Shown here piece by piece: positions 1 through 49,390 of a stretch of 53,072 nt of DNA (position 1 is its first letter; each line of letters opens with the position of its first letter). The notes under the pieces were generated by a model. It saw only the letters and a program-made list of their open reading frames with translations, did not search any database and was not told the origin of the DNA. The stretch is from Candidatus Levybacteria bacterium CG2_30_37_29. Its GTDB lineage: Bacteria; Patescibacteriota; Microgenomatia; Levybacterales; GWA1-39-11. Location of the stretch: positions 1,767-54,838 of the forward strand of contig MNYS01000006.1 of NCBI GenBank assembly GCA_001873215.1, written 5' to 3'. A program made the translations under genes and the position numbers.

Positions 1-1814
1 GCGCCATCGTTTATAATCGGTTTTTGTAAGTCAATTTTCCCCAAATCGTCCGGGATTAATTGTATATTTCCATTTGAGCTTGCGTTGGTCGCAAGAACAA
101 GCGGTTGACCCATGAGCTTGAACTGTCCGCCGCTTGCTTGAAAAGTAGGGGAGGCGCTATTTGCGATTGTCAAATTTCCGGAAGAGTCAAGCGCAAGAAC
201 AACATTTGTCGACGCAGCACCGACTTGAGTTATTGGCGGAAGTCCTTGGAGGACTTCCGCATTTGTTGCATAAGCAACAGTTGCAAGTTGTTGGCGCGGA
301 GTTAGCTCGGAATCATTTCCAATACTTATTCCCAGAAAAAGCTGCGCGTTATCGCGGAAAAGAGATTGCGGTATTCCACAGGCATCTGTTGCAGGGCTGG
401 CGGGCGGGCTGCCGCCATTACAAAGCGCTGCATTGCCGCCGGTTGCAGGATCTGAAGCAAGAAGAATAGAAAAAATTCCGTCTTGATCAGGATCAATACC
501 TCTTACTTCTTCCCATAGTCGCGAAGCTCCTGATGCGGTAATATCGTCATAAAGAATAAAGCGCACCTGTTCGTGGGATGTTATCGGGTTGTCGCTTGCA
601 TCAGTCAGTCTTCCTTGAAAAGAGTAGACTTTTAGCGGCTGGGCAGGCGCAGCAAAAAGCTGGCTTTTTTTGCCGGGCTCTTCAATAAGGTTTTGGTATA
701 GGATATAGCCGATACTGACAGAAAAGATTATTAGAATAGAGACATGAAGATAGTGCGCGAATGCATTACTATGATACCTTTTGTACCATTGCGGTCTTGT
801 GTGTTGAACATGGTGCCAAATTTTTTTGTGAAGCGGAAGATTTGTAAGCGATATAAGGTGTGGGGCATAAAATTCCTTTTTTATATTTTTTACTATAACT
901 TCCTGTGTATTTGTTGAAAACCCTTTTTTCAAAAAATCGAAAAGTGTTTTATTTGGGATATTTATTTTTAAAAATTTAAACCCCCTTATATTTTCTACAA
1001 TCTTTTGGGCTATAAAATCTTCGGCCATAGAATAAGCTCTTTCTGCGAATAGAATGAGCCTAACAGGCGCAAGTTTTGAATAAAAAGAAATTTTCTTTAC
1101 TTCATCTTTGTGGCTTAAATCTTCCAAGGCTATTGAAGCATTTTCCGGTTCTTGCGCAAGAATAATATTTGCGACAGGATCGCCAAGAAGACTGGAGTCT
1201 TTATCCAAAAATTCAGCGTACTTACGTATGGATGAAAGTTTTCGATTTATGCTGCGGGGAGCAAGATGAAGAATGTTCAAAAGTCTATCTTTATAAACCT
1301 CAAGAATTGCCTGCGTTATGTTTAGGCCATTTTCCTCTCCGATTGTTTTTTCATACCAAACCTTAAAAGCTTGTATATCTACGATATAGTTTTTTATACT
1401 AACGCCGGTAAAATTAGAAACATACAGACTGTCTTTGAATTCCCGTAAGCGCCAAGCATCTTTTTCTTTTTGAACTACAGGTGAAGTAGCGAAGGGATTG
1501 TTATCTGTAAGTCCCTCGTCTTTTAAGAATGTGAAAAATTTCCTAAGACTTGAAATAAGCCTGTCAATGGAAGGCTGTGACAGATGTTCTAGTTTTTTTT
1601 CTTGAGTGATGTGGGCTAGAAAAGTTGACAATACATTTTGAGAAAGTGCATGTGAATTAACCGGTGTTTGATAAGTAATCTCAAACCACTCAAAAAACTT
1701 TCGTATGTCGGAAAGATAATTCTTTACTGTTACTTTTGCGAGCGGTCTTTCCTGCCTGCCGGCAGGCAGGTTTTGGGAGAGAAGATTTTCTTTAAAAAGT
1801 TCGAGCAGTTCCAT
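1..1814 (-). CDS. Partial membrane-anchored surface protein (C-terminus lies beyond the window edge). It has two tandem tyrosine-recombinase SAM-like/core-binding-type repeats, one TM helix, then an extracellular fibre-type domain.
   Basis: Hand translation of the minus strand from ATG 1814-1812 (MELLELFKENLLSQNLPAGRQERPLAKVTVKNYLSDIRKFFEWF...) stays open to nt 1. It is absent from the ORF track because there is no stop in the window. Repeat 1 (KVTVKNYLSDIRKFFEWF...SIDRLISSLRKFFTFLKDEG) and repeat 2 (GVSIKNYIVDIQAFKVWY...SINRKLSSIRKYAEFL) fit the integrase N-terminal domain pattern. The TM is AHYLHVSILIIFSVSIGYILY. The ectodomain (FQGRLTD...LWEEV...GIFSILL...ELTPRQQLATVAYATNAE) parallels the N-terminus of the 39877 protein. 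Confidence 0.6.
   Translation of the reverse strand, partial: MELLELFKENLLSQNLPAGRQERPLAKVTVKNYLSDIRKFFEWFEITYQTPVNSHALSQNVLSTFLAHITQEKKLEHLSQPSIDRLISSLRKFFTFLKDEGLTDNNPFATSPVVQKEKDAWRLREFKDSLYVSNFTGVSIKNYIVDIQAFKVWYEKTIGEENGLNITQAILEVYKDRLLNILHLAPRSINRKLSSIRKYAEFLDKDSSLLGDPVANIILAQEPENASIALEDLSHKDEVKKISFYSKLAPVRLILFAERAYSMAEDFIAQKIVENIRGFKFLKINIPNKTLFDFLKKGFSTNTQEVIVKNIKKEFYAPHLISLTNLPLHKKIWHHVQHTRPQWYKRYHSNAFAHYLHVSILIIFSVSIGYILYQNLIEEPGKKSQLFAAPAQPLKVYSFQGRLTDASDNPITSHEQVRFILYDDITASGASRLWEEVRGIDPDQDGIFSILLASDPATGGNAALCNGGSPPASPATDACGIPQSLFRDNAQLFLGISIGNDSELTPRQQLATVAYATNAEVLQGLPPITQVGAASTNVVLALDSSGNLTIANSASPTFQASGGQFKLMGQPLVLATNASSNGNIQLIPDDLGKIDLQKPIINDG
1751..1770. repeat. GC palindrome CCTGCCTGCCGGCAGGCAGG ('PAGRQ element'), in frame within the CDS
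   Basis: Perfect palindrome read directly from the sequence. It translates as NLPAGRQERP in the 1..1814 CDS. Confidence 0.9.
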
Positions 1815-2464
1815 ATAGAAATTAGGTGATAGGTGTTAGGGTATAGGTTTTAGAACTTTTCACAACTGAATACTGTTTACCAAATACCAAATACTCGTTT
1901 ATTTCCGCAGGAATAAATTTTAGCCTCGAGATTATACAGATTATACGGATTATATAGTTCATATAAATAGCTAATAATATATAATGACATTTGTCAATAA
2001 CCTAGAGTAATTTATTCAAAGCAAAATGATATATTTTGATAGTCTGTTCTAAAAAAAATCGTCTTGTGAAATTTAGGCACAAAATAGCACGTTACTCTTT
2101 TCACATCAGAGGAATTTTAGAAAAAATTAGTTAAATTTTAAGAACATAATGTATCCTTTTATGTCAAATCTTGTATTTTCACAGATGATACACTTATTAC
2201 CACTTCTTAATATTTGTATACGGTAATAATTTTCATAAACCTTTTTGTTAAGAGTTTTTTCTCCTAGAACTACTTAGAGTTCGCAGTTTGTTAAAAACTA
2301 TTGACGTTTTTAAAAGGTCTAGCCCTTATGGTTTAGCAGAGGAAGTTACCGTGTGATTAAAAACAATCAATTATTTTTGGATTATATTTGTAAGCGATTT
2401 TAAAACTTGCGCAAAAATAAAGGTATAATTCTTGTAGATAAAGCAGGAAATTTTGGCAAAGGAG

Positions 2465-3469
2465 TTATTTACTATTAGCTAGTTGTAATTTTGTAATCTT
2501 TCTTCGAACACTAATGTATATGCCCAAAATAACTGCAAATATGACGCTTATACCAATAACCCAAATAAGAGGAAAGGCAAAAAAGACTATGCTTTTTTTA
2601 ATCGGACGTGTGTTGTCTGAAAGATTGACTTGCAAGGTTGCGGTGTACATGCCAAATAAAGCTTTTTCTGACCATATTACGCTTGGAATTTTGGCATCTT
2701 GATGAAATTTTATAACTTCCTCGCTTTGTTTTCCCTCGCTTCTGTCAATAAGATACCGTTGTGTTTGTGAGAGTATATATTGTGGTAATGTTTCAATCTT
2801 TCCAACGGTTTGACCAAAAATATTCTTTATTATAATCGTCGCATTTGGGAGTATAAAATGATCACTCGTATTGTAGATAAGAGCTTTGAAATATACAGGT
2901 CCATGTTCTACGAATAATGGTGCCCAAAATTCAGATATGCTTCCGGTTGCCGGCCCCTTTTGTCCTACGGAAAGAAGAACATTTGTTGCTATGCCTGCCG
3001 GAATTGTCGTTGAAGTCTGGGAAGCTTGATTCAGGCTTTCCGTTATAAACACAACTGAAAAGTAATAGTCCCCAATAGGAGAATCTTTTTGGAGATCTAT
3101 TTGCATATTGATTGTTTTTTGTTCAAGCGCATCCAGATGTATTTTTTGAACTTCTTCCCCGTTGACAAAAAAATGAACTTTTTGCCTTATTAGAGGATCC
3201 GGACCATAAAAGTCATCATTTATGAGATATTCAATAGTTCCGTTTAGCTCCTGTGATTGCCGAAAAGGATGAAGCTTGATATCAAAATCACGCGCTATTT
3301 CAGAGTAGTTTTGCAAAAAGATTTTAGCTTCAACTTTTGAAGGTGGAGTAGTTGCGATTTCAAATATAGGAGGGTTAATTCCTATATCAATCTCATCAGC
3401 CGCCATCGCAGCCGGGACAAATTTTGAAAAAAGAAAAAAAGCAAACAAAAGAATAAATACCTTACGCAT
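2465..3469 (-). CDS. Secreted two-beta-sandwich protein with C-terminal TM anchor and basic tail. The architecture resembles DUF916/DUF3324-type cell-surface proteins.
   Basis: ORF track 2465..3487; the likely start is the internal ATG (MRKVFILLFAFFLFSKFVPAAMA signal peptide). The C-terminal TM is LIWVIGISVIFAVILGIYI followed by SVRRKITK. It is paralogous to 16617, 33880 and 34802 (shared NIFGQ..., G.YTA.L motifs). Confidence 0.6.
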   Translation of the reverse strand: MRKVFILLFAFFLFSKFVPAAMAADEIDIGINPPIFEIATTPPSKVEAKIFLQNYSEIARDFDIKLHPFRQSQELNGTIEYLINDDFYGPDPLIRQKVHFFVNGEEVQKIHLDALEQKTINMQIDLQKDSPIGDYYFSVVFITESLNQASQTSTTIPAGIATNVLLSVGQKGPATGSISEFWAPLFVEHGPVYFKALIYNTSDHFILPNATIIIKNIFGQTVGKIETLPQYILSQTQRYLIDRSEGKQSEEVIKFHQDAKIPSVIWSEKALFGMYTATLQVNLSDNTRPIKKSIVFFAFPLIWVIGISVIFAVILGIYISVRRKITKLQLANSK

Positions 3470-3914
3470 ATAACAAGTGTAGTACAATTATAAAAGAAAT
3501 GAAAGTCTCAGGATATTGTTCGGATTAGTTTTAGGTGAAACTTTGAAGTTTAGAAAAAATGAGGCTGGTGCGGTAAATAAGTAGCCAATTATAAAGAAAA
3601 ATATACGAATTTAAAGGCAGCTTTTAGGTCGTGTAAATAATGCTTTATTAGATCGTGTCTGCGTATCAAAGTACATCAGAAAAATTTGAGTATCTTAATC
3701 AATATATTTATCAAAAGAGAATAAAAAGTGATAAAAAATTAACCGTTACTGTTTGGGCCGATAAATCAAGAAAAAAAATACCCCGCTCTATTTTTGTATT
3801 AGTTCTTTTTCACGCAATTATTTTACACGAAGAGAAGTAAGCTTTTTGCGAAAAAGAATTACCGGCTAAGAAAATTTTTGGATTTAGAAAAAAAGTTTTT
3901 ATCGCTTAAAATTG

Positions 3915-4643
3915 TTAAAAAGCAGGCGTGGCGATATACATTATTACATTTTGATATTGTCCTGCAGGTTGGGTTTGTGAGACATTTAACTTATACGTAA
4001 TTTGAGTCTGTTTCGAGCCTATGTTAGAGCCAAGCATAACAGGTTGGGGAACTTGATTTTTTGAAAGATCTGAAAATTGTTTGTAATAAGTTGAGTCTGA
4101 AAATCCAACCGCGCAGTCTGTTGCCAATAAATTGTCACAACGATAGCCAAAGCCATATGTAAGAGGACTTGTCCAAGCGCTAGATGTTACATCATTGCAT
4201 GTTCCGGAATCGCAAGTCGTGTTCTGAATGTCAACACCGCTAGTCAAAACGCGAAGAGGGTTGTTTTCAGATGCGGTTACTTGGTATCCATAGGCTGATT
4301 GGTTGGTAATAGAAAGTGTATTTGTTCTGCTTATCGGCTCGCCCGGATTAACTGTACCAAAATTTATAACCGTTGAGGAGATAGAAAAGCGAAAACCTTC
4401 CGGGCGTAGATACTGAAATCCGGCTCGAACTTTATAGTTGGTTCCCGAATAAAGTCCAATTCCCAATTCACCGCTTGTGAAACCAAGTTTGAATGTGGAA
4501 TTTGTAGGTTTTCCTGATGCTTGGTTAAAATTTCCTCCGCGAAGAATAAAATTTGAACTGCTCATCGTAATAGCTGTCACAACGGCAGTAAAAATCAGAA
4601 AGAGAAAAATGATGCTAAGAGTTATAGATATATATCTTTGCAT
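3915..4643 (-). CDS. Secreted beta-rich pilin-like/WxL-like surface protein ending ...YQNVIMYIATPAF
   Basis: Signal peptide ITLSIIFLFLIFTAVVTAITM. It carries SSNF/TNY repeat motifs (SSSNFILRGGNF..., SGTNYKVRAGFQY) and a C-terminal strand motif shared with 17593, 35973 and 37127. Confidence 0.55.
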   Translation of the reverse strand: MQRYISITLSIIFLFLIFTAVVTAITMSSSNFILRGGNFNQASGKPTNSTFKLGFTSGELGIGLYSGTNYKVRAGFQYLRPEGFRFSISSTVINFGTVNPGEPISRTNTLSITNQSAYGYQVTASENNPLRVLTSGVDIQNTTCDSGTCNDVTSSAWTSPLTYGFGYRCDNLLATDCAVGFSDSTYYKQFSDLSKNQVPQPVMLGSNIGSKQTQITYKLNVSQTQPAGQYQNVIMYIATPAF

Positions 4644-4671
4644 AATGTTGTAAGTTTATAATGTTTAGATA

Positions 4672-5310
4672 TCATTTTTCCGTCTCATCCCGAAGTTTTT
4701 GGGTTTTTTCAAGGATATCAGAAAGCTCTTCTACCTCTTCATCGTCATTTTCCACGTGGTCTGAATGTAAAAGCGAGTCAACATCCTCAATTATTTCTCC
4801 AGTTTTGTCTTCTACCTCTTTTTCAAGCTTTTCGCGTCTTTTAAATTCCCTGCCAAAGAAAAAAGCTATTGGGGAAAGAAATCCGAGAGACCCAATCTTT
4901 ATAAGATTTGATAGAACGTCATCTTTTAATGCCGGTTGAATAAATACGGCGGCAAATCCAAGCAAAAATACAAAAACAGTCACCGGTTCAAATAGAAATG
5001 CTATTCCAAAAAGAAGAAAATATAGTAAGAAGAAAAGGTTTGATTGTATTCCGCCCGTCAAAAAGACAGTCAGGACAATACCAGCAGTAATGACAAAAAC
5101 CTCACGAAGGGATCCGATAAATAATTCATCTCCCTGCCTGCCTGCCGGCAGGCCTTTGTTTCTGCGGCGTTGAATAACAACAAAAATAATGGAAAAAATT
5201 ATAAGAAGGGCAAGGATTTGGGTTATGAAGTCTGAAAGAGGAGTGTTAAGCGTGATAAAAACGAAAATCGTTGCGAGAATCAGAGTGGTGGATTGTTTTA
5301 AGGTTTTCAT
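4672..5310 (-). CDS. Polytopic membrane protein with acidic C-terminal tail, function unknown; carries an in-frame PAGRQ palindrome
   Basis: Long ORF with about 5 hydrophobic segments and an acidic coiled tail (EKEVEDKTGEIIEDVD...). The sequence NKGLPAGRQGDE is encoded by the palindrome. Confidence 0.6.
   Translation of the reverse strand: MKTLKQSTTLILATIFVFITLNTPLSDFITQILALLIIFSIIFVVIQRRRNKGLPAGRQGDELFIGSLREVFVITAGIVLTVFLTGGIQSNLFFLLYFLLFGIAFLFEPVTVFVFLLGFAAVFIQPALKDDVLSNLIKIGSLGFLSPIAFFFGREFKRREKLEKEVEDKTGEIIEDVDSLLHSDHVENDDEEVEELSDILEKTQKLRDETEK
5133..5154. repeat. PAGRQ-element copy (asymmetric variant CCTGCCTGCCTGCCGGCAGGCC), in frame within the CDS
   Basis: Read directly from the sequence. 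It encodes LPAGRQ in 4672..5310. Confidence 0.85.
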
Positions 5311-5385
5311 TTAGAAAAGTTCCTTTCACAATAATCATACCATAGAATAATTCAGTTTTGCTCTGTGATAGAGTTTATTTTTTTT

Positions 5386-5673
5386 GCGTCTTTTCAAAAA
5401 GACGCCCAAAACTTCTTGAGAGTATTCTTCCTTGTTCTTTCTGCCGAGAAAGAACCAAAGACTCTTGTCGTGTCGCGCTCACGCATTACGCCTTTCCCTC
5501 ACTCACTGAAAGAGCCGGACAAGCCTTTCCTCTTTCCTGGCGCTCGCTCGGTCAAGGCTCCAAGCGTTGTGCGTGAAACGACAAATACGTTAGATTGCAA
5601 GGGGAGAGCAGATTAAGAAAACGGCGATTAAAAGAAATTGAGAATTGGAGCAATGATAATTGATTGAAAATTT
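5386..5673 (+). repeat. Hairpin-rich intergenic repeat family, copy A
   Basis: Starts with the hairpin GCGTCTTTTCAAAAAGACGC followed by CCAAAACTTCTTGAGAGT. The second hairpin is GTTCTTTCT-GCCG-AGAAAGAAC followed by CCAAAGACT. It also has the TCACTCACT block and the tail GATAATTGATTGAAAATT shared with copy C. Confidence 0.75.
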
Positions 5674-5872
5674 AAAATTTAAAATTGAAAATTCCTCGAA
5701 GAGGTGTGTGGTGGTCCGGAAGGAAAGTTTACGCTGGTTGCGTAAAAACATTCCCTCCGGAACCGATTTCTCCGATTTAATCGGGGTTTCCCCGCGTCGG
5801 CGGCGAGAGTAGACCGTGCTGTCGGTCTGGTTCGCGTTTGACGCGTGACTGTTTCGTAGGTCATTCTACAGA

Positions 5873-6400
5873 TCAATGTGGCTTCATGGATTTCGATCCG
5901 GGTCCGGATCCTGTCTCGATGATGAATCCAAGAAGAGGGTCCCCAGAGTCTTCCACGATCATCTGCTCCACGAGATTGTGGACCATCGTTTTTGACCGCC
6001 TCATAGCAGTCTCCGATCCCTGAACGTATGTTTCGTGGATGAGCCTGATAACTCGTTCGTGACGCCGTGTTTCCTCGCTTACAGCGAGCCGGCGCCTTCC
6101 CCAGGCGGCTGTCTGGTGCCAAAACGTTGAGAGCCGTCTCTGCTCGTTGGAAATGTCCACCTTGAGGCGGGTTTCGATCTCGGCCAGGTTGTGTTCGTGC
6201 GCCGCGTTTTCGCTCTCGATGAACGGTTTCGCGGCGTTTTGCGCCTGAACGAAATGGTTGTGTCTTGATTGAGCTACATGGAGAAGTTCCAGGAGCTCGT
6301 TTTCGGTTGGCAAGTTTTTACCTTTCTGCGCGTTGCGCAAGCTAGTCCGCCGATTTGGCGGAGGTCGTGAACTTATGGTCGTCTTGTCTTGTTTGGCCAT
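5873..6400 (-). CDS. Island-1 hypothetical protein, basic N-terminus plus predicted helical/coiled region
   Basis: 175-aa ORF that overlaps the upstream ORF end by 28 nt (operon-like). I recognise no family. The Arg-rich overlapping frame 5679..6122 is judged spurious. Confidence 0.5.
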   Translation of the reverse strand: MAKQDKTTISSRPPPNRRTSLRNAQKGKNLPTENELLELLHVAQSRHNHFVQAQNAAKPFIESENAAHEHNLAEIETRLKVDISNEQRRLSTFWHQTAAWGRRRLAVSEETRRHERVIRLIHETYVQGSETAMRRSKTMVHNLVEQMIVEDSGDPLLGFIIETGSGPGSKSMKPH

Positions 6401-6987
6401 TTGTCTTGAACCAGGTGCCAGACGAAGCTCTTGTCCAGAGCGTCAACGGCTAGGGTTATGACATAAGCCAAGAGGAGTGCGAACGCAAACCATGCGAGAC
6501 CTCGTTCATAACCGTCTATCAGACCGAACTTAATCGCTTTCAGTCCTCCGTCAAAGAGCAGAGTGCTGGCCACGAAAAAAAACGGAACGTGAACAATCCT
6601 GTTCATGTTGACGAGATTATTGCCCCAAGTGGGGTTATCAGCCACGAAAACGAACATGAATGTGAGTACTTCTCCGAGCGCGAGCGCAACGAAAGAGAAA
6701 CTCGTGTCTGTCCATAAAGAGGAAGGAACTTCCGCTTTCTGGAGCCAAAGTGCGAGGACGCCTGCGAGCAGAGCAATAAAAATATCACCCACCCAGCAAG
6801 ATGTCCACCGCGTGATCGCCAATCCATAGGGAGGGCGATATGCCTCTGTGTGGTACCGGATGTTTTCGGCTATCCACACAAGGAATGGTGACCAAGTCAA
6901 GAGGATAAGGGTAACCGCCAAGGGCGGAAGACCCCAGAACCACCTGAATAGATCATGTTCGACAGGGCTCAAAATTGCACCTCCCAA
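6373..6987 (-). CDS. Island-1 polytopic membrane protein, unknown family
   Basis: About 6 hydrophobic helices (LAVTLILLTWSPFLVWIA, IFIALLAGVLALWL, FSFVALALGEVLTFMFVFV, VHVPFFFVASTLLF, WFAFALLLAYVITLAV). GGGAGGTG lies just upstream of an in-frame TTG, so the true start may be the second TTG (about 6972). Confidence 0.6.
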   Translation of the reverse strand: MGGAILSPVEHDLFRWFWGLPPLAVTLILLTWSPFLVWIAENIRYHTEAYRPPYGLAITRWTSCWVGDIFIALLAGVLALWLQKAEVPSSLWTDTSFSFVALALGEVLTFMFVFVADNPTWGNNLVNMNRIVHVPFFFVASTLLFDGGLKAIKFGLIDGYERGLAWFAFALLLAYVITLAVDALDKSFVWHLVQDKWPNKTRRP

Positions 6988-7020
6988 TAAGCGCCAACTG
7001 TAACTCCTGTTTTGATTCCT

Positions 7021-7062
7021 ATTGAATCGAAGTTGACTCCGATTGAATCGGAGTTGACCTAC
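7021..7062. promoter_or_regulatory. Two tandem 21-bp repeats containing the 17-bp perfect palindrome CTCCGATTGAATCGGAG (candidate operator or RNA hairpins) in the island-1 leader
   Basis: ATTGAATCGAAGTTGACTCCG is followed by ATTGAATCGGAGTTGACCTAC. The palindrome lies at 7037-7053, between the promoter and the membrane-protein start. Confidence 0.5.
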
Positions 7063-7205
7063 GAATTGTCAAAGTGCGAACGGTTGCTAGGTTTGTCAGG
7101 TGTTTGACGTGAATCAAACATCTGTCTTTCAACCGCGTGTTGATTGCTTTATGACAAAATATGCCCATGCAAAACGGGCCTTCTCCTGTCAAAAGCGAAT
7201 ACGGA

Positions 7206-7234
7206 ATTATACCACTTTTGGGCAAGAAAGCAAA
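7206..7234 (-). promoter_or_regulatory. Sigma70-like promoter for the island-1 operon
   Basis: The minus strand reads TTTGCT, a 17-nt spacer ending in TGG, then TATAAT (extended -10). It lies about 220 nt upstream of the ORF start. Confidence 0.5.
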
Positions 7235-7396
7235 AACTATGGGGCTACTAATTTTTAATTTACAATTTTTAATTTTTATTGAATTTTCAAGTTAAAATTA
7301 TTTAAACATTATTAATATTTGATTTCAGATTTAAAATTTAAAATTTGTAATTCTTAAGGCTTTAGGTTTGTAGTTGATTTTGCTATACTACATTTA

Positions 7397-10150
7397 ATGA
7401 AGAAAGATAAAAATTACTACAATCACAGTTTAATCGAGCCTAAGTGGCAAAAGTCTTGGGAAGAAAAAAAACTTTTCTCTCCTGACTTGAAAAATGCCAA
7501 AAATCCATACTACAACCTCATGATGTTCCCATATCCTTCAGCCGAAGGGCTTCATGTCGGCAATATGTATACTTTCACGGGGGCAGACGTTTACGCTCGT
7601 TTTAACCGTATGCAGGGAAAAGATGTTTTTGAACCGATTGGCCTTGACGGATTTGGGATTCACTCCGAAAATTATGCACTCAAGGTTGGCCGCCATCCGC
7701 GCGAGCAGGCGGAAATATCAGAGAAAAATTTCTACAGACAGCTGCGCGCTATCGGTAATTCTTTTGACTGGACAAGAACGCTTGAGACTTATGATCCTAA
7801 TTATTACAAATGGACACAATGGTTATTTGTCCAGCTTTTCAAAGCAGGTCTTGCGTACAGAAAAAAAGCAGAAGTTAACTGGTGTCCTTCATGTAAAACA
7901 GTTTTATCAGATGAACAAGTTATCGTAGATAAGTGCGAGAGGTGCAGTTCGACCGTCGAAAAAAGGGAACTGGAGCAATGGTTTTTCAGAATCACAGCCT
8001 ATGCCGAAAGACTTTTGAACAATTTAGAAAAGCTTGATTGGACCGAAAAAATAAAAATAGCCCAGAAAAACTGGATTGGCAGATCACAGGGTTGTTTGAT
8101 AAACTTTCAGGTTGTTGATTTAGACTGTCAAATCAAGGTTTTTACAACACGTCCCGATACGCTTTTTGGATCAACTTTTCTTGTTTTGTCCCCAGAACAC
8201 CCAATTTGTCAGAAAATTGACCAAAAAGACGTCAAAGACTATGTCCGAAAAGCTCACAATATATCAGACAATGACAGAATTACAGAAGGAAAGGAAAAAA
8301 CAGGGGTCTTTAGCGGGCTTTATGCAATAAATCCCGTAAATAGTGAAAAGATTCCAATTTGGATTGCGGATTATGTACTTATGGGTTATGGAACCGGTGC
8401 GATTATGGCTGTCCCAGCTCACGACCAAAGAGATTATGAGTTTGCCAAAAAGTATAATTTGCCGATAAGGCAGGTAATCGCGCCAGTATCAAGTAGTAAG
8501 TATCAAGTATTAAGCAAAAAAGAGGAAATACTTAATGCTAAATACGTAATACATAATACTGATATTGTTGAGGCCTATGCCGGAGATGGGAAAATATTAA
8601 ATTCAGGTGAGTGGAGTGGATGGGAAGTTCCAAAAGATATGGATATGGTTATCGATTGGATTGAGAAGAAAGGTTTTGGAAAACGTGAAGTAACTTTCCA
8701 TCTTCGTGACTGGCTGATTTCAAGACAGAGATATTGGGGTCCGCCGATCCCGATGATTTACTGCAAGGCATGTCATGATGCTGGCCGTTCGTGGTTTACT
8801 GAAAATAAAGCTGCGCTCGGTGAAAGAGAAGTATCAAGTAGTAAGTATCAAGTATTAAGCAAAAAAGAGGAAATACTTAACACTAAATACATAATACATA
8901 ATACTGAAATGAATGGATGGTATCCTGTTTTAGATGAAAATCTTCCGGTGCTTCTTCCTGATGTAGAAGATTGGAAACCCCGTTCAGCAAGTTCGGCAAG
9001 GTCGGGCCTTGCCAATAAGACTGAAGGGCCTTTGTCCTCACATCCGGAGTTTTATGAAACAAAATGCCCTAAATGCGGCGTAACAGCCAGAAGAGAGACA
9101 GATGTTTCCGATACCTTTCTTGACAGTGCTTGGTACTTTCTTCGTTATACGTCGGTTGATACAGAAAGTGTAGCTTTTGATAGGGAAACCGTAAAAAAAT
9201 GGCTTCCGGTAAATATGTATATTGGCGGAGCAGAGCATGCGGTGCTTCACCTTTTGTATAGCCGTTTTATCACGATGGTATTAAATGATTTGAAATTTGT
9301 TGATTTTGATGAACCTTTTACAAAACTCTTTGCGCATGGGCTTATCATAAAAGATGGTGCAAAGATGAGTAAATCACGCGGAAACGTGGTTATTCCTGAC
9401 GGATATATTAAAAAATACGGCGCGGATACTCTTCGAATGTATCTTATGTTTATAGGACCTTTCAATCAGGGAGGGGATTTCTCAGATTCTGGAATTGAAG
9501 GAATGAATCGTTTCCTCAAGAAAGTCTGGCGACTTCTTTCGGAAGCTCAAATTTCAAATTTAAAATTTCAAATTTCCAATCAAATTCCAAATGATGAATT
9601 TGCAAAATTAGATACAAAAATGCATAGAACTATAAAGGATATAACTGAAGATATTCAAAACTTTAAATACAATACCTCAATCGCGAGACTAATGGAATAC
9701 TATAATGTTCTTTTTGATTTTTATACTAAATACAAAATACCTGCCTCGCCGGCAGGCAGGCTAGATACCAAATACTGCAAAACATTAGTTTTGTTACTTG
9801 CGCCGTTTGCGCCGCATATGACTGAAGAATTGTGGCAAAGATTAAAGATTAAAGATTTAGGATTAAAGAATGAAGAGAAGAATCATCAATCAGCAATCAC
9901 CAATCATAAATCAATACATGTAGAGGCGTGGCCAACGTTTGATGAAAAATATTTAGTAGAAGATACGGTTACAATTGTTATTCAGGTAAATGGAAAAAAG
10001 CGTTCAGAGTTTATAGTTAATAGTTCACAGTTAAAAGATGAAGAAAAACTTAAAAGTCAGGCACAAGAAATAATAAAAAAATATATTGAAGGAAAAACAA
10101 TTAAAAAAACTATTTATGTTCAAGGTAAAATATTGAATTTTGTGGTGTAG
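7397..10150 (+). CDS. leuS: Leucyl-tRNA synthetase with multiple in-frame repeat insertions
   Basis: Class I signatures are present: PSAEGLHVGN (HIGH-type) and KMSKS (aa 656-660). It also has the zinc-knuckle CPSCKT...CERC, the editing-domain motif TTRPDTLFG and AVPAHDQRDYEFA. It is 917 aa, longer than I would expect for a bacterial LeuRS, because of the insertions. Confidence 0.95.
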   Translation: MKKDKNYYNHSLIEPKWQKSWEEKKLFSPDLKNAKNPYYNLMMFPYPSAEGLHVGNMYTFTGADVYARFNRMQGKDVFEPIGLDGFGIHSENYALKVGRHPREQAEISEKNFYRQLRAIGNSFDWTRTLETYDPNYYKWTQWLFVQLFKAGLAYRKKAEVNWCPSCKTVLSDEQVIVDKCERCSSTVEKRELEQWFFRITAYAERLLNNLEKLDWTEKIKIAQKNWIGRSQGCLINFQVVDLDCQIKVFTTRPDTLFGSTFLVLSPEHPICQKIDQKDVKDYVRKAHNISDNDRITEGKEKTGVFSGLYAINPVNSEKIPIWIADYVLMGYGTGAIMAVPAHDQRDYEFAKKYNLPIRQVIAPVSSSKYQVLSKKEEILNAKYVIHNTDIVEAYAGDGKILNSGEWSGWEVPKDMDMVIDWIEKKGFGKREVTFHLRDWLISRQRYWGPPIPMIYCKACHDAGRSWFTENKAALGEREVSSSKYQVLSKKEEILNTKYIIHNTEMNGWYPVLDENLPVLLPDVEDWKPRSASSARSGLANKTEGPLSSHPEFYETKCPKCGVTARRETDVSDTFLDSAWYFLRYTSVDTESVAFDRETVKKWLPVNMYIGGAEHAVLHLLYSRFITMVLNDLKFVDFDEPFTKLFAHGLIIKDGAKMSKSRGNVVIPDGYIKKYGADTLRMYLMFIGPFNQGGDFSDSGIEGMNRFLKKVWRLLSEAQISNLKFQISNQIPNDEFAKLDTKMHRTIKDITEDIQNFKYNTSIARLMEYYNVLFDFYTKYKIPASPAGRLDTKYCKTLVLLLAPFAPHMTEELWQRLKIKDLGLKNEEKNHQSAITNHKSIHVEAWPTFDEKYLVEDTVTIVIQVNGKKRSEFIVNSSQLKDEEKLKSQAQEIIKKYIEGKTIKKTIYVQGKILNFVV
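8486..8563 (+). repeat. 78-nt in-frame repeat module, copy 1 (VSSSKYQVLSKKEEILNAKYVIHNTD)
   Basis: Nearly identical (about 4 mismatches) to 8831..8908. It is built from the words AAGTATCAAGTA and AATAC..TAATAC seen elsewhere. Confidence 0.9.
8831..8908 (+). repeat. 78-nt in-frame repeat module, copy 2 (VSSSKYQVLSKKEEILNTKYIIHNTE)
   Basis: Direct comparison with copy 1. Confidence 0.9.
9545..9592 (+). repeat. AT-rich AAATTTAAAATT-type word repeat inserted in frame in leuS (AQISNLKFQISNQIPN)
   Basis: The sequence CAAATTTCAAATTTAAAATTTCAAATTTCCAATCAAATTCC matches the intergenic word repeats. Confidence 0.7.
9740..9760. repeat. PAGRQ-element variant CCTGCCTCGCCGGCAGGCAGG in frame in leuS (PASPAGRL)
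   Basis: Read directly from the sequence. Confidence 0.85.
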
Positions 10151-10151: not shown

Positions 10152-10385
10152 TCTTTGTACTTTCGTTCCGGCGAAAGTACCAAAGACTCTCGTCGGGTCT
10201 TGTTCATACCATTCAAAAGCTCACTCATTCAGGGAAGTACCGGACTCTCCACCAGTCGGCGGATCGCCTTTCAACTTCTTGTTCCTTCGTTCGTTCACTT
10301 CTTCATGGGATTCACTTCGAATCGACGACTATGATGGCGCGTGAAACGGCGAATTTTGGAAAATGATCCTTGAAAATTTAAAATT
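10152..10385 (+). repeat. Hairpin-rich intergenic repeat family, copy B (lacks the 5' hairpin)
   Basis: Contains GTACTTTCG-TTCCGG-CGAAAGTAC followed by CCAAAGACTCTCGTCGGGTCTTGTTC, the block GCTCACTCATT, and the end TTCATGGGATTCACTTCGAATCGACGAC. It begins 2 nt after the leuS stop. Confidence 0.75.
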
Positions 10386-10397
10386 TAAAACTTAAAA

Positions 10398-11048
10398 TTG
10401 TTGTGTCGTATGGATGAAGGTACCGGCGAATTGTTTTCAAAGCTTCAAGTTTTTGCAAAAAATAATTTAATCATCTTGGTTCTGGGGGTTTTGGGACTTT
10501 CTCTACTAATTGTCGGTTTAATACAATTACTGGGTCAAAAGCCTCCCGAAGTAAATTTCAGTGCCGCACAAGATTTGAAAACAACACAATCAACAGCTTC
10601 TACGAGTCCAAAAATAGCAGTAGACATAGAAGGAGCCGTTCAAAAACCCGGAGTTTTCCGTCTTCCGCCTGATGCGCGCGTCCAGGACGCGCTGATTGCG
10701 GCAGGGGGAATAAGCGCGCAAGCAGATCGGAATTTTATTGAGAAAAGTCTTAATCTTGCTCAAAAGCTAACAGATGGGGCAAAGATTTATATTCCGCGTC
10801 AAGGAGAAGTTGCAACGAGTACTAAGTTAACCACAGGTTTAAGCGTAGACACAAGTCAGTCTGTTCGCGGACAAATAAATATTAATTCAGCAACGCTTGT
10901 CCAGCTTGATACGCTTCCGGGAGTAGGGCAAGTGATTGGTCAAAAAATAATTGATAACAGGCCGTATTCTGATATTTCCCAGCTTGTGTCAAAAAAAATA
11001 GTATCGCAAAAAACTTTTGACAAACTTAAAGATAGCATTGGGATATAG
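10398..11048 (+). CDS. comEA: ComEA-type DNA receptor (TM anchor, SLBB-like domain, helix-hairpin-helix)
   Basis: Motifs IAVDIEGAVQKPGVFRLP and INSATLVQLDTLPGVGQVIGQKIIDNRPY. The probable true start is the ATG at 10410. Confidence 0.85.
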   Translation: MLCRMDEGTGELFSKLQVFAKNNLIILVLGVLGLSLLIVGLIQLLGQKPPEVNFSAAQDLKTTQSTASTSPKIAVDIEGAVQKPGVFRLPPDARVQDALIAAGGISAQADRNFIEKSLNLAQKLTDGAKIYIPRQGEVATSTKLTTGLSVDTSQSVRGQININSATLVQLDTLPGVGQVIGQKIIDNRPYSDISQLVSKKIVSQKTFDKLKDSIGI

Positions 11049-20112: not shown

Positions 20113-20144
20113 TAACGATCCCGTCTAACGATCCCGTATCGTTA
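20113..20144. repeat. REP-like hairpin TAACGATCCCGTATCGTTA preceded by a truncated half copy
   Basis: The sequence is TAACGATCCCGTC followed by TAACGATCCCGTATCGTTA. The same hairpin flanks the RAYT gene at 48704. Confidence 0.85.
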
Positions 20145-20159
20145 GAGTCCTTTTTCTTT

Positions 20160-20403
20160 GCGTCTTTTCAAAAAGACGCCCAAAACTTCTTGCGAGTATT
20201 ATTCTTTGTACTTTCGTTCCGGCGAAAGTACCAAAGCCTATCGCCGAGTTTTGTTCCGTGCTTTCAAAACCTCGTTACTCACTGAATTTTCGAGTCCCCT
20301 TCGGCGAAAATTCCGGGCGCTTGCTCCTGGGTTTTTCATGCACTTCACTGCAAATCGGCGATTAAAAAATGAGTATTAGAATATTGATAATTGATTGAAA
20401 ATT
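20160..20403 (+). repeat. Hairpin-rich intergenic repeat family, copy C (most complete)
   Basis: Contains GCGTCTTTTCAAAAAGACGCCCAAAACTTCTTGCGAGT, GTACTTTCG-TTCCGG-CGAAAGTAC, TTACTCACT, TTCATGCACTTCACTGCAAATCGGCGATT and the tail GATAATTGATTGAAAATT. Confidence 0.8.
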
Positions 20404-20530
20404 GCTTGCCCTGAGGGAACCCGAAGGGAAAATTGTAAATTGAAAATTTCTGTCGGAATATTGGTAGGATTTGTGATTGAAGAGGTAAGAAATGAAACAT
20501 GAGGCACTAAGATATGTTTTGATACCCTAG

Positions 20531-25339: not shown

Positions 25340-25378
25340 TATTTCTCAATTGAGATTCGCAAAGATGAAAATATAAAA

Positions 25379-25397
25379 TAACGATCCCGTATCGTTA
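25379..25397. repeat. REP-like hairpin TAACGATCCCGTATCGTTA
   Basis: Exact copy located 40 nt after the pyrF stop. Confidence 0.85.
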
Positions 25398-25419
25398 GGC
25401 TCGTTAGAGCTCATTAGGG

Positions 25420-25585
25420 CGTTAGAATACTTTACGGCTTAACTTTTCTCCTTTCAGCTTCTTTTTCCTTCACTCACTCGATTTTTCATGTGCTTCACGG
25501 CGAATCGCCGATTTTAATTGAGCGCAAAACGACAAATTAAGCGAGAAATTGCGCACAAAACGACGAATAAGGTTCATGCGTAAGT
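25420..25585 (+). repeat. Hairpin-rich intergenic repeat family, copy D (3' part only)
   Basis: Contains CTTCACTCACTCGATTTTTCATGTGCTTCACGGCGAATCGCCGATT, followed by repeated GCGCAAAACGACAAAT-type units. Confidence 0.6.
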
Positions 25586-26710: not shown

Positions 26711-27088
26711 TTAGCGTTTAGGGTTTAGTTGACCAATCTTTATAATCATAACATGAAGCATGCGTGAAACTTCATTAACCAAGCTTTCAATATCATTGTA
26801 CGAGTTTATATTACCAAATTTTAAGTCTCTTGCTATGGTTAGTTGAGTTTCCAGTTCCAGCAATGATCCGTACGCTATTGAATAGAACTGTGAATATTCC
26901 CTAGAAGATTTTCTTGCATAACCCTCTGCTATATTTGATGGAATTGAAACTGCGGCTCGGCGCATTTGAGAGCTTAAACCATAAATTTCCGATTGAGGAA
27001 AGTTGTTTGTTAGTTTGTAAATTTCTTTTACAAGAGAAATTGATTTCTGCCACACAATTAGTTCTTTGTAAGATTTTATTGATGACAT
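26711..27088 (-). CDS. Four-helix-bundle protein (23S rRNA IVS protein / Avd-like family)
   Basis: Hallmark motifs YKELIVWQKSISLVKEIYKLTNNFPQSEIYGLSSQMRRAAVSIPSNIAEGYAR and GSLLELETQL. Confidence 0.85.
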   Translation of the reverse strand: MSSIKSYKELIVWQKSISLVKEIYKLTNNFPQSEIYGLSSQMRRAAVSIPSNIAEGYARKSSREYSQFYSIAYGSLLELETQLTIARDLKFGNINSYNDIESLVNEVSRMLHVMIIKIGQLNPKR

Positions 27089-31106: not shown

Positions 31107-31194
31107 GTGGGTGGCAACGCGCGCAGAGCGCGCAATTTTTAATTTTTAATTTTTAATTTTAAATTGCAGGTAAGCTGCTCGGGTTGCCACCTAC
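31107..31194 (+). ncRNA. Structured leader of island 2: a 12-bp outer stem enclosing the GCGCGC-AGA-GCGCGC hairpin, an AT-rich word-repeat linker and the GCAG-GTAAG-CTGC hairpin
   Basis: GTGGGTGGCAAC (31107-31118) pairs with GTTGCCACCTAC (31183-31194), giving 11 Watson-Crick pairs plus 1 G-U. The inner hairpin is followed by AATTTTTAATTTTT, which is terminator-like. Confidence 0.45.
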
Positions 31195-31234
31195 AAGGTG
31201 AGTTTTTAACCCCAAGGAGGGTAAATAGGAGGAA

Positions 31235-31555
31235 GTGACCGAAGGTTACGACCTCAAGGAGGGTCCGATCATCAAGTTGGATCCGGTCGGAAGACACGGA
31301 TACGTACTCGATGAAACGACAGGTAAGCCTTACTTTTTCTACTTTACTCATCGCCGCATGGCCGTGATTTTTCGCGGACATGTCGACTTTGGGAACAAGA
31401 CGACTAAGCAAGGATTTCACCTTCGCGCAGCGATTCGATGTGTATTCACACTAACGAAAAACGTACGCGGAGAAACCGTAGTCCATCGTATCGCACCAGC
31501 GGACGATTGGCACAACCTTGAGATATCAATCTCGTCAAACACCAGTTTGGCGTAG
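31235..31555 (+). CDS. Island-2 ORF1, small beta-rich protein; possible OB/cold-shock-like fold (weak)
   Basis: GTG start with AAGGAGG/AGGAGG upstream. GPIIKLDPVGRHGYVLDETTGKPYFFYFTH loosely resembles a CSD core; this rests on inference only. Confidence 0.45.
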   Translation: MTEGYDLKEGPIIKLDPVGRHGYVLDETTGKPYFFYFTHRRMAVIFRGHVDFGNKTTKQGFHLRAAIRCVFTLTKNVRGETVVHRIAPADDWHNLEISISSNTSLA

Positions 31556-31596
31556 ATACGACCGGAATTCAGACAAGCGCATGGAGGCGCAAGTAA

Positions 31597-31881
31597 ATGA
31601 TACAGTTCAGCATCTCCTTTGGAGAAGCTCAAATCCTGAGGCCCGCGCTCCAGGAAAATTTCTCGCGCATGGATGCGGGGCAGGCACAGGTGCTCTTGAG
31701 TATCGCAAAACGTTTCGAAATGTTCGGAATCGCATTTGCGGTAGACGAAACGCCGTATGCAGGCTCAATTCCACATTCTTACATGAGGGCAACCTTTTCC
31801 CCCGAATTTTTGGGACTGGTCAAGGCCATTCTCATGGGGAACACCATCGGATCGGACGGGAAGTCCTTCATCGTCCCTTAG
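31597..31881 (+). CDS. Island-2 ORF2, hypothetical 94-aa protein
   Basis: ATG preceded by GGAGG at about 9 nt. No family recognised. Confidence 0.45.
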   Translation: MIQFSISFGEAQILRPALQENFSRMDAGQAQVLLSIAKRFEMFGIAFAVDETPYAGSIPHSYMRATFSPEFLGLVKAILMGNTIGSDGKSFIVP

Positions 31882-31952
31882 GGCAATACCCGAGAGCGGT
31901 AAAGGACTAAGCCCGAATAGCGACAATTAGACAGAACCGATGGGAGGGTTCT

Positions 31953-32165
31953 ATGAGTCAAGATACAGCAGTCAAGCTAGCCATTTGGGTCTTTGCGGGC
32001 GTCATCGCGCTCCTCCTCGCGGCAGCCGTGGCGTTCACCGTCAATATCTGGAAGGGTGTCGAGCGGAACGGAAAGTTCTCTCTTGTAGCCATCTGGGTAC
32101 TGTTCGCCATGATCATCGCGTGCACAACAGCAGGAGCTGCGCTGTACGTCGTCGTCCTGACCTAG
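31953..32165 (+). CDS. Island-2 ORF3, 70-aa two-TM membrane protein
   Basis: ATG preceded by GGGAGGG. Two hydrophobic helices (LAIWVFAGVIALLLAAAVAF and LVAIWVLFAMIIACTTAGAALYVVV). Confidence 0.55.
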   Translation: MSQDTAVKLAIWVFAGVIALLLAAAVAFTVNIWKGVERNGKFSLVAIWVLFAMIIACTTAGAALYVVVLT

Positions 32166-32221
32166 TTCGGTAGCCATCCGAACAGCGAATCGGAGTTCAA
32201 GCACACATGGAGGTGTAGCTA

Positions 32222-32524
32222 ATGTCAATTGAGGGAGGACCCGGGGGTAGTGTCGAGCGAGAACCTGGAATCAGGTCAGCTCAGGCATCAACTTTGCGGG
32301 TTAACTGTCGCTTTTGCGAAGGCTCCGGGCTCGGCCTCCTACGTCCCGACGAATCGGGCGAAGCTTTCTTCTGCGCAGCGTGCGACGGCCATGGATTCAT
32401 TACGGCTACACGCTTCACAGGTTTGAGGGTTCTTGCTTCGGTGAAAAAGGTTTCACGGCACCCTGACGCGCAGGGAAATCCCGTGACCTACAAGGGATTT
32501 CTTGCAGGGAAGCGGCCGACCTAA
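32222..32524 (+). CDS. Island-2 ORF4, small DnaJ-type zinc-finger protein (two CxxCxGxG motifs)
   Basis: ATG preceded by GGAGGTG. The motifs are CRFCEGSG and CAACDGHG. Its stop codon is the first triplet of the right inverted repeat. Confidence 0.55.
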   Translation: MSIEGGPGGSVEREPGIRSAQASTLRVNCRFCEGSGLGLLRPDESGEAFFCAACDGHGFITATRFTGLRVLASVKKVSRHPDAQGNPVTYKGFLAGKRPT

Positions 32525-32705
32525 ATCTTTCGCAAGTACGTATCAGTCTTTACCCAAGCGGCAAAAGGGCCAAAAGCCCACGCATCTGCCGTAGAGGTAG
32601 GACAAAGATACTCCCGAGTTTCTCGGGTACACACACGTGCCGCCGCTTCCTTCACAGGAAACGGCGGCACACCACAACTTTTCCTCTATTACTTTTAATT
32701 TCCTC

Positions 32706-32925
32706 TGCGTCTTTTGAAAAGACGCCCAAAACTTCTTGCGAGTGAAGCCGGACTATTTTTGTTCGTTCACTTGTCGGGTGATTTCACCCCTTCCTCGATC
32801 CTTCGGACGAGGAATCCCCCTGACGCATTCACTCACAAAAACTTAACGTCCTAATGCTTCAATCGCAAGGAGAAAGCATAAATACAAGCGACGAACATGA
32901 GAGCTTTCACGGCGAATCGCCGACT
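32706..32925 (+). repeat. Hairpin-rich intergenic repeat family, copy E
   Basis: Contains GCGTCTTTTGAAAAGACGCCCAAAACTTCTTGCGAGT, the block CATTCACTCAC and the end GCTTTCACGGCGAATCGCCGAC. Confidence 0.7.
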
Positions 32926-32983
32926 AGAATTTGAGACTTTATTGTTTAATAATTTCCCTTTTCTTTGTTATAATATTCTTTGC

Positions 32984-33055
32984 GCCGAAGTAACTCAGCG
33001 GTAGAGTAGCTGTTTTGTAAACAGCAAGTCGCGGGTTCGAATCCCGCCTTCGGCT
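32984..33055 (+). tRNA. tRNA-Thr (anticodon TGT)
   Basis: Acceptor GCCGAAG/CTTCGGC, D-arm ACTC-AGCGGTA-GAGT, anticodon arm GCTGT-TTTGTAA-ACAGC, T-arm GCGGG-TTCGAAT-CCCGC. Confidence 0.9.
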
Positions 33056-33085
33056 CAAAAAACGTAAACAGCCTTTCGATAAATC

Positions 33086-38244: not shown

Positions 38245-38631
38245 TTATGATTTCTGATTAATGAATGTCTTACTTTTTCTTATAAAGCCCTGTAATAGTC
38301 GATCAACAATGTCTGTTTGTTCCGTTAAAATTTTAAGATCCATTTCTGATAGACAATCAACATCTTTTGCGATTAATATAAAATTTTTAAGCTCTGAAAG
38401 CGACCCTTTTGACATATAGTAGAATTGAACTTTTTCTCTGTAGCCTTGTCTTCCAAAGCCTTCCGTAATGTTCCCTGTTATCGAAGCTGCAGCTCGTCTC
38501 ATTTGGTCTATTAGAGAGTATGTTTCTTCTCGAGGGAAACTCTTGGTGATTTTATAAGTCATAATTACAAGCTTATGTCCTTCCCTCCATACACTCAAAT
38601 CCGTAAATGATTCTATTTTCCCGTTTTTCAT
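38245..38631 (-). CDS. Four-helix-bundle protein (23S rRNA IVS protein / Avd-like family)
   Basis: Motifs FTDLSVWREGHKLVIMTYKITKSFPREETYSLIDQMRRAAASITGNITEGFGR and GSLSELKNF. Confidence 0.85.
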   Translation of the reverse strand: MKNGKIESFTDLSVWREGHKLVIMTYKITKSFPREETYSLIDQMRRAAASITGNITEGFGRQGYREKVQFYYMSKGSLSELKNFILIAKDVDCLSEMDLKILTEQTDIVDRLLQGFIRKSKTFINQKS

Positions 38632-48669: not shown

Positions 48670-48688
48670 TGACGATCCCGTATCGTTA
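48670..48688. repeat. REP-like hairpin (TGACGATCCCGTATCGTTA) 15 nt upstream of the RAYT start
   Basis: Read directly from the sequence. It is preceded by the CTTGACACTTGACGACACTTGAC word repeats. Confidence 0.85.
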
Positions 48689-49375: not shown

Positions 49376-49390
49376 ACTGGTAAATGAATT

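Follow-up and report, generated by a model that had tools for sequence, protein, structure and literature searches.

A GC-rich island of 1.55 kb lies beside leuS on contig MNYS01000006.1 of Candidatus Levybacteria bacterium CG2_30_37_29 (assembly GCA_001873215.1), within a stretch of 53,072 nucleotides (contig positions 1,767 to 54,838) that we refer to as the window and whose numbering is used throughout. We found that this island, here called island 1, is a real, contiguous and compositionally foreign two-gene unit. It holds two open reading frames (ORFs) on the minus strand, ORF204 for a polytopic membrane protein and ORF175 for a basic helical protein. Sequence comparison assigns the unit to a family of cassettes that share a non-coding backbone, consisting of a promoter and 3' hairpins, while the cargo varies. 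The explanation that fits best, to which we give an even chance, is that the unit is horizontally derived, an accessory transcription unit resembling a phage moron, and that it occupies a lineage-specific variable site between a membrane-protein operon, which contains a gene for a 212-amino-acid protein, and leuS, a hotspot at which cargo is renewed.

Genomes of the candidate phyla radiation (CPR, Patescibacteria) are tiny, and how they acquire accessory functions is poorly understood. A single intergenic site that can be traced across species therefore offers a case of gene turnover, and the backbone motifs can be used to find further units and their source. That GC content has stayed high across deep divergence although the host is AT-rich bears on amelioration and gene flow, and the membrane protein belongs to a new family with a confidently predicted, unmatched fold.

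A foreign unit at a variable site beside leuS

The initial annotation of this DNA had described a compositional jump, which was borne out: GC content is 51% across 5695-7244 and 39.7% in the whole window, and the edges are sharp and coincide with AT-rich word repeats. GC content at third codon positions (GC3) is 0.56 in ORF204 and 0.62 in ORF175, whereas leuS and seven further genes of the host range from 0.28 to 0.34. The inverted copies of an AAAATT word reported to flank the island are indeed present, but they are generic intergenic repeats with 7 and 6 copies in the window. A further GC peak at window positions 1-500 was considered as a third island and rejected, as it is the end of a long minus-strand gene.

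The exact island proteins are present on contigs from JGI, ENA, Logan and NCBI (GCA_002773275.1), and all contigs that carry them show the same arrangement of leuS, island and 212-amino-acid gene. In total, 21 loci match positions 5300-7450 at 98.8-100% identity. Although a jump as sharp as this one could arise from contaminant DNA fused to a CPR contig during assembly, more than 20 contigs, produced by different assemblers from different samples and archives, contain both junctions, and other species hold related cassettes at the identical locus. We consider the chance of an assembly chimera to be negligible, and contiguity at the junctions, on which the initial annotation had made its proposal depend, holds.

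The population carries real variants of the island. A nonsense allele, W81* (position 6745), truncates the membrane protein in four contigs (L019-L022), and an 18-bp indel (5766-5791) removes the downstream palindrome in L012 and L017; the remaining real variants are scattered single-nucleotide polymorphisms (SNPs). Gene calls of 94, 75, 139 and 155 amino acids were considered as pseudogene variants and set aside, being mostly differences between gene callers on identical DNA, so that only W81* is real among them. Ten of the 14 SNPs in both ORFs fall in third codon positions (5/7 in ORF175), whereas the same SNPs read in an alternative 147-amino-acid frame fall mostly in codon positions 1 and 2.

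LeuS places the host within Candidatus Levybacteria, the nearest LeuS being only 63% identical. Gene order around the island is conserved in this group, with genes for proteins of 334, 242 and 212 amino acids on one strand and leuS, comEA and comEC on the other. The flanking genes thus persist while the site between the 212-amino-acid orthologue and leuS is empty or filled in different ways. At locus L030 it is an empty intergenic spacer of 56 bp. At L028 and L029 it holds an island of 54% GC with a DUF1660-like gene (74 amino acids) and Ndk, at L034 genes for ACP and NDK (49% GC) and at L032 a TrpR-like gene. L035, the contig of the closest ORF204 homologue, carries an island of 53.5% GC with that homologue and two other ORFs directly upstream of the 212-amino-acid orthologue; as this adjoining gene is 53% identical to the window's 212-amino-acid protein, we place the L035 island at the same locus.

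The L034 site (4050-4860) comes from more distant Levybacteria. Its ACP and NDK genes have a GC3 of 0.47-0.49, compared with 0.26-0.34 in the host's leuS and 212-amino-acid-gene orthologues, and only remnants of the backbone are present. It may represent a partly ameliorated, older version of the island.

Shared non-coding ends, varying cargo

The proposal that the island belongs to a family of small modules was upheld by three further cassettes, L028, L035 and L156. All four open with the same promoter, subsets share a leader motif and the 3' module, and the cargo differs or is mosaic: DUF1660-like genes occur in L028 and L156, the ORF204 family in the window, L035 and L156, and Ndk in L028 and L034, although the Ndk proteins of the latter two are only 37% identical. 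The first gene of L156 exceeds the Pfam threshold for DUF1660, annotated as 'prophage protein'. GC3 ranges from 0.56 to 0.71 over the complete set of genes carried by the cassettes of the window, L028, L035 and L156, whereas it is 0.33-0.39 in the orthologues of leuS and the 212-amino-acid gene of the window and L028. An exception is L035, where the flanking 212-amino-acid orthologue itself has a GC3 of 0.58. Positions of the features are collected in the table.

Table. Features of island 1, its flanks and the structured repeats of the window
Feature	Position	Strand	Remark
Repeat copy c1, REP/BIME-like	5369..5690	+	between cassette and 212-amino-acid gene; absent from other Levybacteria loci
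Left AAAATT-word repeat, AT-rich	5664..5694	.	generic host intergenic repeat at junction
Conserved 3' multi-hairpin module, ~170 nt	5695..5872	-	aligns with L028 and L035
Tail CCACCACACACCTCTTCGAGG, CCACAC-rich	5695-5716	-	end of module
Long terminal hairpin	5717-5761	-	kept with compensatory changes in L028 and L035
Palindrome CTCCGATTTAATCGGGG	5770-5788	-	polymorphic
Hairpin GACCG-N6-CGGTC	5812-5827	-	GACCG-TGCTGT-CGGTC identical in window and L028
3' arm of inverted repeat, AATGACCTACGAA	5853..5865	-	identical arm in L028
ORF175, basic helical protein	5873..6400	-	overlaps ORF204 by 28 nt
ORF204/199, polytopic membrane protein	6373..6972	-	mechanical ORF reaches 6987
Shine-Dalgarno sequence GGGAGGTG	6978..6985	-	5 nt upstream of TTG 6972
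5' leader, ~225 nt	6973..7203	-	predicted transcript start TCC(G)TATTCGCTT kept in L028 and L156
Two tandem 21-bp repeats, 86% identical	7012-7032, 7033-7053	.	candidate operator or RNA hairpins
Leader motif CTTTGACAA-TTCGTAGGTCA, 5' arm of inverted repeat	7055..7074	-	as TTGACAACGTAGGTCA in L028 and L156; absent from L035
5' boundary and promoter	7204..7244	-	CCCATAGTTTTTGC...AAAAGTGGTATAATTC; exact sequence match; also opens cassettes L035, L028 and L156
Right AT-rich word repeats	7247..7353	.	between cassette and leuS promoter region
Structured repeat, full copies	5369-5690, 20143-20410, 32695-32940	+	
Structured repeat, degenerate copies	10152-10400, ~25420-25560	+	
RAYT-type Y1 (HUH) transposase gene	48704-49375		Pfam Y1_Tnp above threshold; best PDB match TnpA-REP, 4ER8

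An extended -10 promoter had been annotated and was recovered at 7206-7233, conserved in the three related cassettes. On the minus strand it consists of a -35 element TTGCTT (7233-7228), a 16-nt spacer, TG (7214-7213) and a -10 element TATAAT (7211-7206). A generic consensus scanner skipped it because the -35 element matches only 3/6. The -35/-10 region reads ...AAAGTGGTATAATTC in the window and L035 and TGTTATAATTCC in L028. In all four cassettes homology starts at (C)TCATAGT and extends into the first bases of the predicted transcript, TTCGCTT, while the sequences upstream of CTCATAGT are unrelated between cassettes.

The leader, estimated at roughly 220 nt in the initial annotation, measures about 225 nt and contains the two tandem 21-bp repeats and the perfect 17-bp palindrome (CTCCGATTGAATCGGAG, 7037-7053) described there, the latter within the second repeat. 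The label 'iteron-like' was not sustained, as there is no evidence for replication and the repeats are palindromic and resemble operators or hairpins. A third copy of the palindrome motif, missed at first, occupies 5770-5788 on the 3' side of the genes, and island 1 alone contained exact matches to CCGATTNAATCGG. Closer to the promoter, the motif TTGACAA-(0-2 nt)-CGTAGGTCA is common to the window, L028 and L156. A second promoter at TTGACAA was considered and rejected, since no -10 element follows in any of these three cassettes.

Downstream of the last gene, the window and L028 share the same order of elements: AATGACCTACGAA, the GACCG hairpin, further hairpins, the long GC-rich terminal hairpin and the CCACAC-rich tail. 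The module thus comprises three or four hairpins. The terminal hairpin is the stem of about 19 bp noticed at the outset and is conserved in L028 and L035. Its inner stem is wholly different between the window and L028, yet pairing is retained. L035 shares the flanks of the terminal hairpin (GGTTCCGGARGGAA...TTCCTTCCGGACC), and the tail, has a TCCGATTAATCGGA palindrome, and lacks both arms of the inverted repeat. RNAalifold predicted 31 consensus pairs in the alignment of window, L028 and L035, and compensatory double changes affect eight of these. Between the window and L028, identity reaches 70% in the 3' module but only 41-52% at third codon positions of leuS and the 212-amino-acid gene; the module is therefore constrained, or younger than the flanks.

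The 11-bp inverted repeat said to bracket the two ORFs (5853-5863 and 7055-7065) is exact. Taken alone it is not beyond chance, with about 0.3 such pairs expected in 1.5 kb by our estimate and 35 pairs listed, but it gains weight from the independent cassette L028, in which the two arms are found again. The arms co-occur, both being present in the window and L028 and neither in L035. They measure 11-13 bp and are internal to the backbone: the promoter and the hairpins lie beyond them.

A further hairpin motif, (T)TCGCCAACCGGCGAA, recurs in the intergenic spacers of L156 (1655-1720 and 2033-2091) and L028 (~5085-5115). It might serve the cassette family as a signal for processing or attenuation.

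Both ORFs are real protein-coding genes, as indicated by the third-position bias of the SNPs together with the ORF204 homologues and structure model described below. They overlap as had been annotated, although the membrane protein is likelier to have 199 than 204 amino acids. Its start is most likely TTG 6972: GGGAGGTG precedes this codon, most gene callers chose it and the homologues begin there. L035 shows the same GGAGGTGCAA-N-start arrangement.

We searched 1.84 billion representative sequences with HMMER and obtained 19 homologues of ORF204, all of about 200 amino acids, full-length and 23-48% identical. The family is characterized by six helices and the motifs RPPxGL..FRW..GD and NxNRxxH, all of which the island protein fits, and P48, G50, G62, R125 and H128 are invariant in the alignment. 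An AlphaFold2 model built from the homologue alignment comprises about six long helices and has a predicted local distance difference test score (pLDDT) of 93.4 and a predicted template modelling score of 0.88. Foldseek found no match for this model in the PDB or the viral structure library BFVD (best E 0.86, TM < 0.3), and sequence-profile searches of Pfam and the PDB with ORF204 were equally empty. Pfam, PHROGs, PADLOC and NCBIfam returned nothing for either ORF, word-indexed homology searches matched both ORFs to their own clusters only, and the ORF204 profile had no relative in IMG/VR. The initial statement that neither protein is recognizable thus holds for these family collections but not for ORF204, which has its remote homologues. 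By sequence, ORF204 represents a new, unnamed membrane-protein family, and its modelled fold is without counterpart in the PDB or BFVD.

ORF175 had no homologue outside its own cluster. A single-sequence AlphaFold2 model consists of a long helix (residues 33-106) and otherwise low-confidence segments, with a pLDDT of 68. The small proteins encoded 3' of the ORF204 homologues in L035 and L156 showed no significant similarity to ORF175. As no ORF175 homologue is detectable beside these relatives, the pair is not conserved.

Structured RNA genes classically show up as GC-rich intergenic islands in AT-rich genomes. As island 1 has this signature and its 3' 180 nt are strongly structured, one might regard it as the gene of a large structured non-coding RNA in which the ORFs arose by chance. 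The full-length protein homologues and the pLDDT-93 fold of ORF204, the third-position SNP bias and the conserved Shine-Dalgarno sequence all oppose this idea. Nor did Rfam searches with island 1, island 2 (see below) and repeat copy c2 give a match at the gathering threshold or even at E < 5, apart from one chance hit. We regard a non-coding RNA gene as very improbable. For the coding part the idea is as good as refuted, which leaves the 3' module alone as a possible RNA element.

Origin of the cassette

In our proposal, an extended -10, sigma-70-type promoter starting at CTCATAGT would drive a bicistronic mRNA. In the leader (two copies) and at the 3' end (one copy), the palindromes might form RNA hairpins or serve as operators bound by a dimeric regulator. 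Within the transcript, the two arms of the inverted repeat may pair, which their co-occurrence supports weakly, and the 3' hairpins would terminate or stabilize the transcript ahead of the downstream 212-amino-acid operon. Recombination with an unobserved reservoir of GC-rich DNA, for instance an element of phage or plasmid type, would renew the cargo, with the backbone or the locus serving as docking site and lineage-specific deletions adding further differences. The encoded function would be dispensable, as suggested by the W81* nonsense allele, and most likely exerted at the membrane; exclusion is one example, some other accessory role in the envelope another.

We favor repeated input of GC-rich DNA for three reasons: cassette genes with a GC3 of 0.56-0.71 reside in hosts of 0.33-0.39, the window and L028 have no cargo gene in common and the L030 site is empty. 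The window and L028 are the closest pair by their 212-amino-acid proteins (71% identical), and L030 is by this protein no more distant from the two than the cassette-bearing L035.

Several observations weigh against a renewed hotspot. Between the window and L035, ORF204 is about as diverged (48% amino acid identity, third-position identity 0.39) as the flanking 212-amino-acid gene (55%, 0.33), and all three cassettes with known flanks lie at one locus; both findings fit long vertical residence. No excised or inverted form of the island occurs among 22 assembled contigs, which are all colinear with the window. Genes for recombination, transposition, replication, packaging or known defence functions were absent in and beside the cassette, and neither a target-site duplication nor flanking direct repeats were found beyond generic AT words. 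Tblastn and blastn searches of phage and plasmid collections, as well as of IMG/VR, gave no relative of the cassette, and the postulated GC-rich reservoir is accordingly unobserved. A scan of viral contigs with a 15-mer of the promoter produced 120 chance matches and was discarded as uninformative, the pattern being too short. The 3' module folds equally well on both strands (z-score of -5.1 on the minus strand, that of the mRNA, and -4.7 on the plus strand). No homology supports the encoded function, and promoter, terminator and RNA pairing are predictions from sequence.

Some of the same evidence points to an old, vertically inherited Levybacteria operon, in which an ancestral GC-rich, multi-gene locus 5' of the 212-amino-acid operon, with DUF1660-like, ORF204, helical-protein, Ndk, ACP and other genes, underwent differential gene loss, the ends are a promoter and a terminator or leader under purifying selection, and nothing is mobile now. 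The common locus of the three cassettes, the parallel divergence of ORF204 and the 212-amino-acid gene (55% in the latter), the mosaic distribution of DUF1660-like, ORF204 and Ndk genes over the loci and the absence of mobility genes are all expected from such a history. It leaves unexplained why a GC3 of 0.56-0.71 should stay unameliorated in hosts of about 0.33-0.39 despite saturated synonymous divergence, why the sister species represented by the window and L028 share no cargo gene, why L030, which ranks among the cassette-bearing species by 212-amino-acid identity, has a clean 56-bp site, and why the Ndk proteins of L028 and L034 are so dissimilar. The initial annotation had named homologues occurring as ordinary, vertically inherited genes of matching composition as an outcome that would speak against a mobile origin; the homologues are syntenic in relatives, but they keep their GC-rich, deviant composition there. 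An old operon is a serious though less probable explanation. Free transposition accounts less well for a single chromosomal locus than either a fixed hotspot or long residence does. The mobility suggested at the outset found no support, with no recombinase or transposase, no target-site duplication and an inverted repeat inside the backbone. The unit also does not resemble an insertion sequence, a miniature inverted-repeat transposable element or another transposon, as the arms are internal, the cassette has no transposase and the hairpins of the REP-associated tyrosine transposase (RAYT) encoded elsewhere in the window are unrelated. An inverton is equally unsupported, given the single orientation in assembled contigs, and no invertase was found.

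More specific mechanisms seem less probable still. The shared ends could define an undescribed, 'expression-ready' CPR cassette system with a fixed docking site, in which promoter and 3' module serve as handles for recombination or RNA processing, cargo comes from a GC-rich reservoir and the cassette encodes no recombinase; we consider this possible but doubtful. Unlikely, in our view, is a toxin-antitoxin or abortive-infection module consisting of a membrane effector and a helical partner that autoregulates through palindromic operators. Two small genes that overlap and have a promoter of their own, tandem palindromes that separate this promoter from the start codon, the location in a hotspot, a nonsense allele marking the unit as dispensable and prophage-type DUF1660 neighbours in related cassettes would suit such a module, but neither gene had a match in PADLOC, Pfam, PHROGs or NCBIfam, the ORF175 partner is not kept beside the ORF204 relatives of L035 and L156, and the ORF175 model is without a recognizable DNA-binding fold. 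We give even less credence to site-specific cassettes on the integron principle, in which the 3' module or the 13-bp arms, folded as single strands or double-stranded, would be recognized by a recombinase encoded elsewhere and cargo swapped at a fixed site. Conserved structured ends around unrelated cargo at one site, the orphan genes typical of cassettes, hairpins that fold strongly on either strand and a single-strand-DNA Y1 transposase of the RAYT type in the genome are in keeping with this idea. Against it, the imperfect hairpin at 5717-5761 has no bounding RYYYAAC or GTTRRRY cores, there is no array, intI or attI, the cassette has its own promoter and the RAYT hairpin TAACGATCCCGTATCGTTAG is unrelated to those of the cassette. 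Moreover, no tyrosine or serine recombinase or integrase was found among 39 window ORFs scanned, a set that did not include every long ORF. Renewal at a hotspot remains the reading we prefer over these alternatives.

Neighbouring elements and known systems

The initial annotation had joined island 1 with a second GC-rich island of the window into one family. We found no basis for this, as blastn and tblastx of island 2 against island 1, L028, L035 and L156 detected no similarity; with no detectable shared sequence, a family covering both islands is unsupported. All that they have in common is a GC-rich hairpin, loosely analogous in the two, with a CACCACA tail behind it. Island 2 (31170-32700) contains four small plus-strand ORFs and adjoins tRNA-Thr (32984-33056). 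One of its ORFs (32222-32524) encodes a DnaJ-type CxxCxGxG zinc finger or anti-TRAP-like domain, and at the 3' end of the island a GC-rich hairpin precedes CACCACAAC. A third GC-rich island (50-55% GC, small minus-strand ORFs) is present on L023 (Ga0100378_1035431, 1650-3695) in a different genomic context, where it directly adjoins a c3-like copy of the structured repeat described next; its sequence showed no detectable similarity to the island 1 family or island 2.

The window has five or more copies of a structured repeat of about 250-300 nt, and they are all on the plus strand. The first element of the repeat is the hairpin GCGTCTTTT(C)AAAAAGACGC, after which comes CCAAAACTTCTTG, and the stems vary with compensatory changes. 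Three copies adjoin GC-rich islands, namely island 1, island 2 and the L023 island. The repeat had no Rfam match, and a 15-mer of it was absent from the other Levybacteria loci examined. A 20-mer gave one chance coding match among genome contigs (a metagenome-assembled genome of Staskawiczbacteria) and none among viral contigs; metagenome contigs with this 20-mer were confined to those of the same population, L023-L025 and one chance match. The window also encodes a RAYT-type transposase whose gene is flanked by the hairpin TAACGATCCCGTATCGTTAG (region 48668-49409), with one copy in frame inside the gene. The same hairpin lies just 5' of repeat copies c2 (20118-20151) and c5 (25371-25404). The structured repeats are probably elements akin to repetitive extragenic palindromes (REP) or bacterial interspersed mosaic elements (BIME), and c1 would then be a separate insertion and not part of the cassette backbone.

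Other features of the window were noted in passing. Within leuS, an 81-nt repeat that encodes SSSKYQVLSKKEEILNxKY.IHNT occurs twice in frame (8485-8565 and 8830-8910, the copies being 95% identical), and AT-word repeats are translated in frame as well (...ISNLKFQISNQ..., ~9515-9575); LeuS of relatives is 37-40 amino acids shorter. Three paralogues of PF05635 (23S rRNA intervening-sequence protein or bAvd-like four-helix bundle) are encoded at 26711-27088, 38245-38631 and 48111-48470, one of them immediately upstream of the RAYT gene.

Among known systems, the c1 repeat, but not the cassette, resembles REP/BIME elements with their RAYT: the transposase gene is flanked by its own hairpin, the repeats are intergenic and on one strand, and copies adjoin both islands. 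The cassette backbone, in contrast, has no sequence in common with these repeats, and repeat and cassette are not oriented consistently to each other from locus to locus. With integron cassettes and their attC sites the island has in common that small units of orphan genes end in an imperfectly paired structured element and that unrelated cargo stands behind the same site; unlike them it is a single unit at one site with its own promoter and has no attC cores, array, integrase, attI or Pc.

Phage morons offer a closer parallel in organization. The cassette is a self-contained unit with a near-consensus promoter, terminal hairpins, deviant composition and dispensable cargo, and a related cassette carries the DUF1660 'prophage protein' domain. 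Predicted promoter, genes, 3' hairpins and composition thus agree with a moron, whereas a location in a prophage does not, as there was no match in PHROGs or phage databases and the neighbouring genes are leuS, comEA, comEC and those of a conserved envelope operon. The sharing of one non-coding backbone across different cargos is not a feature of morons either, and the cassette is GC-rich relative to its host. Compared with genomic islets at hotspots between core genes, for example those for defence or cargo genes of phages and bacteria, the cassettes stand out by their conserved regulatory ends, their size of only 1-2 kb and the absence of an integrase; they share with them the identical order of flanking genes, a site that is empty, occupied or differently occupied, and a deviant composition.

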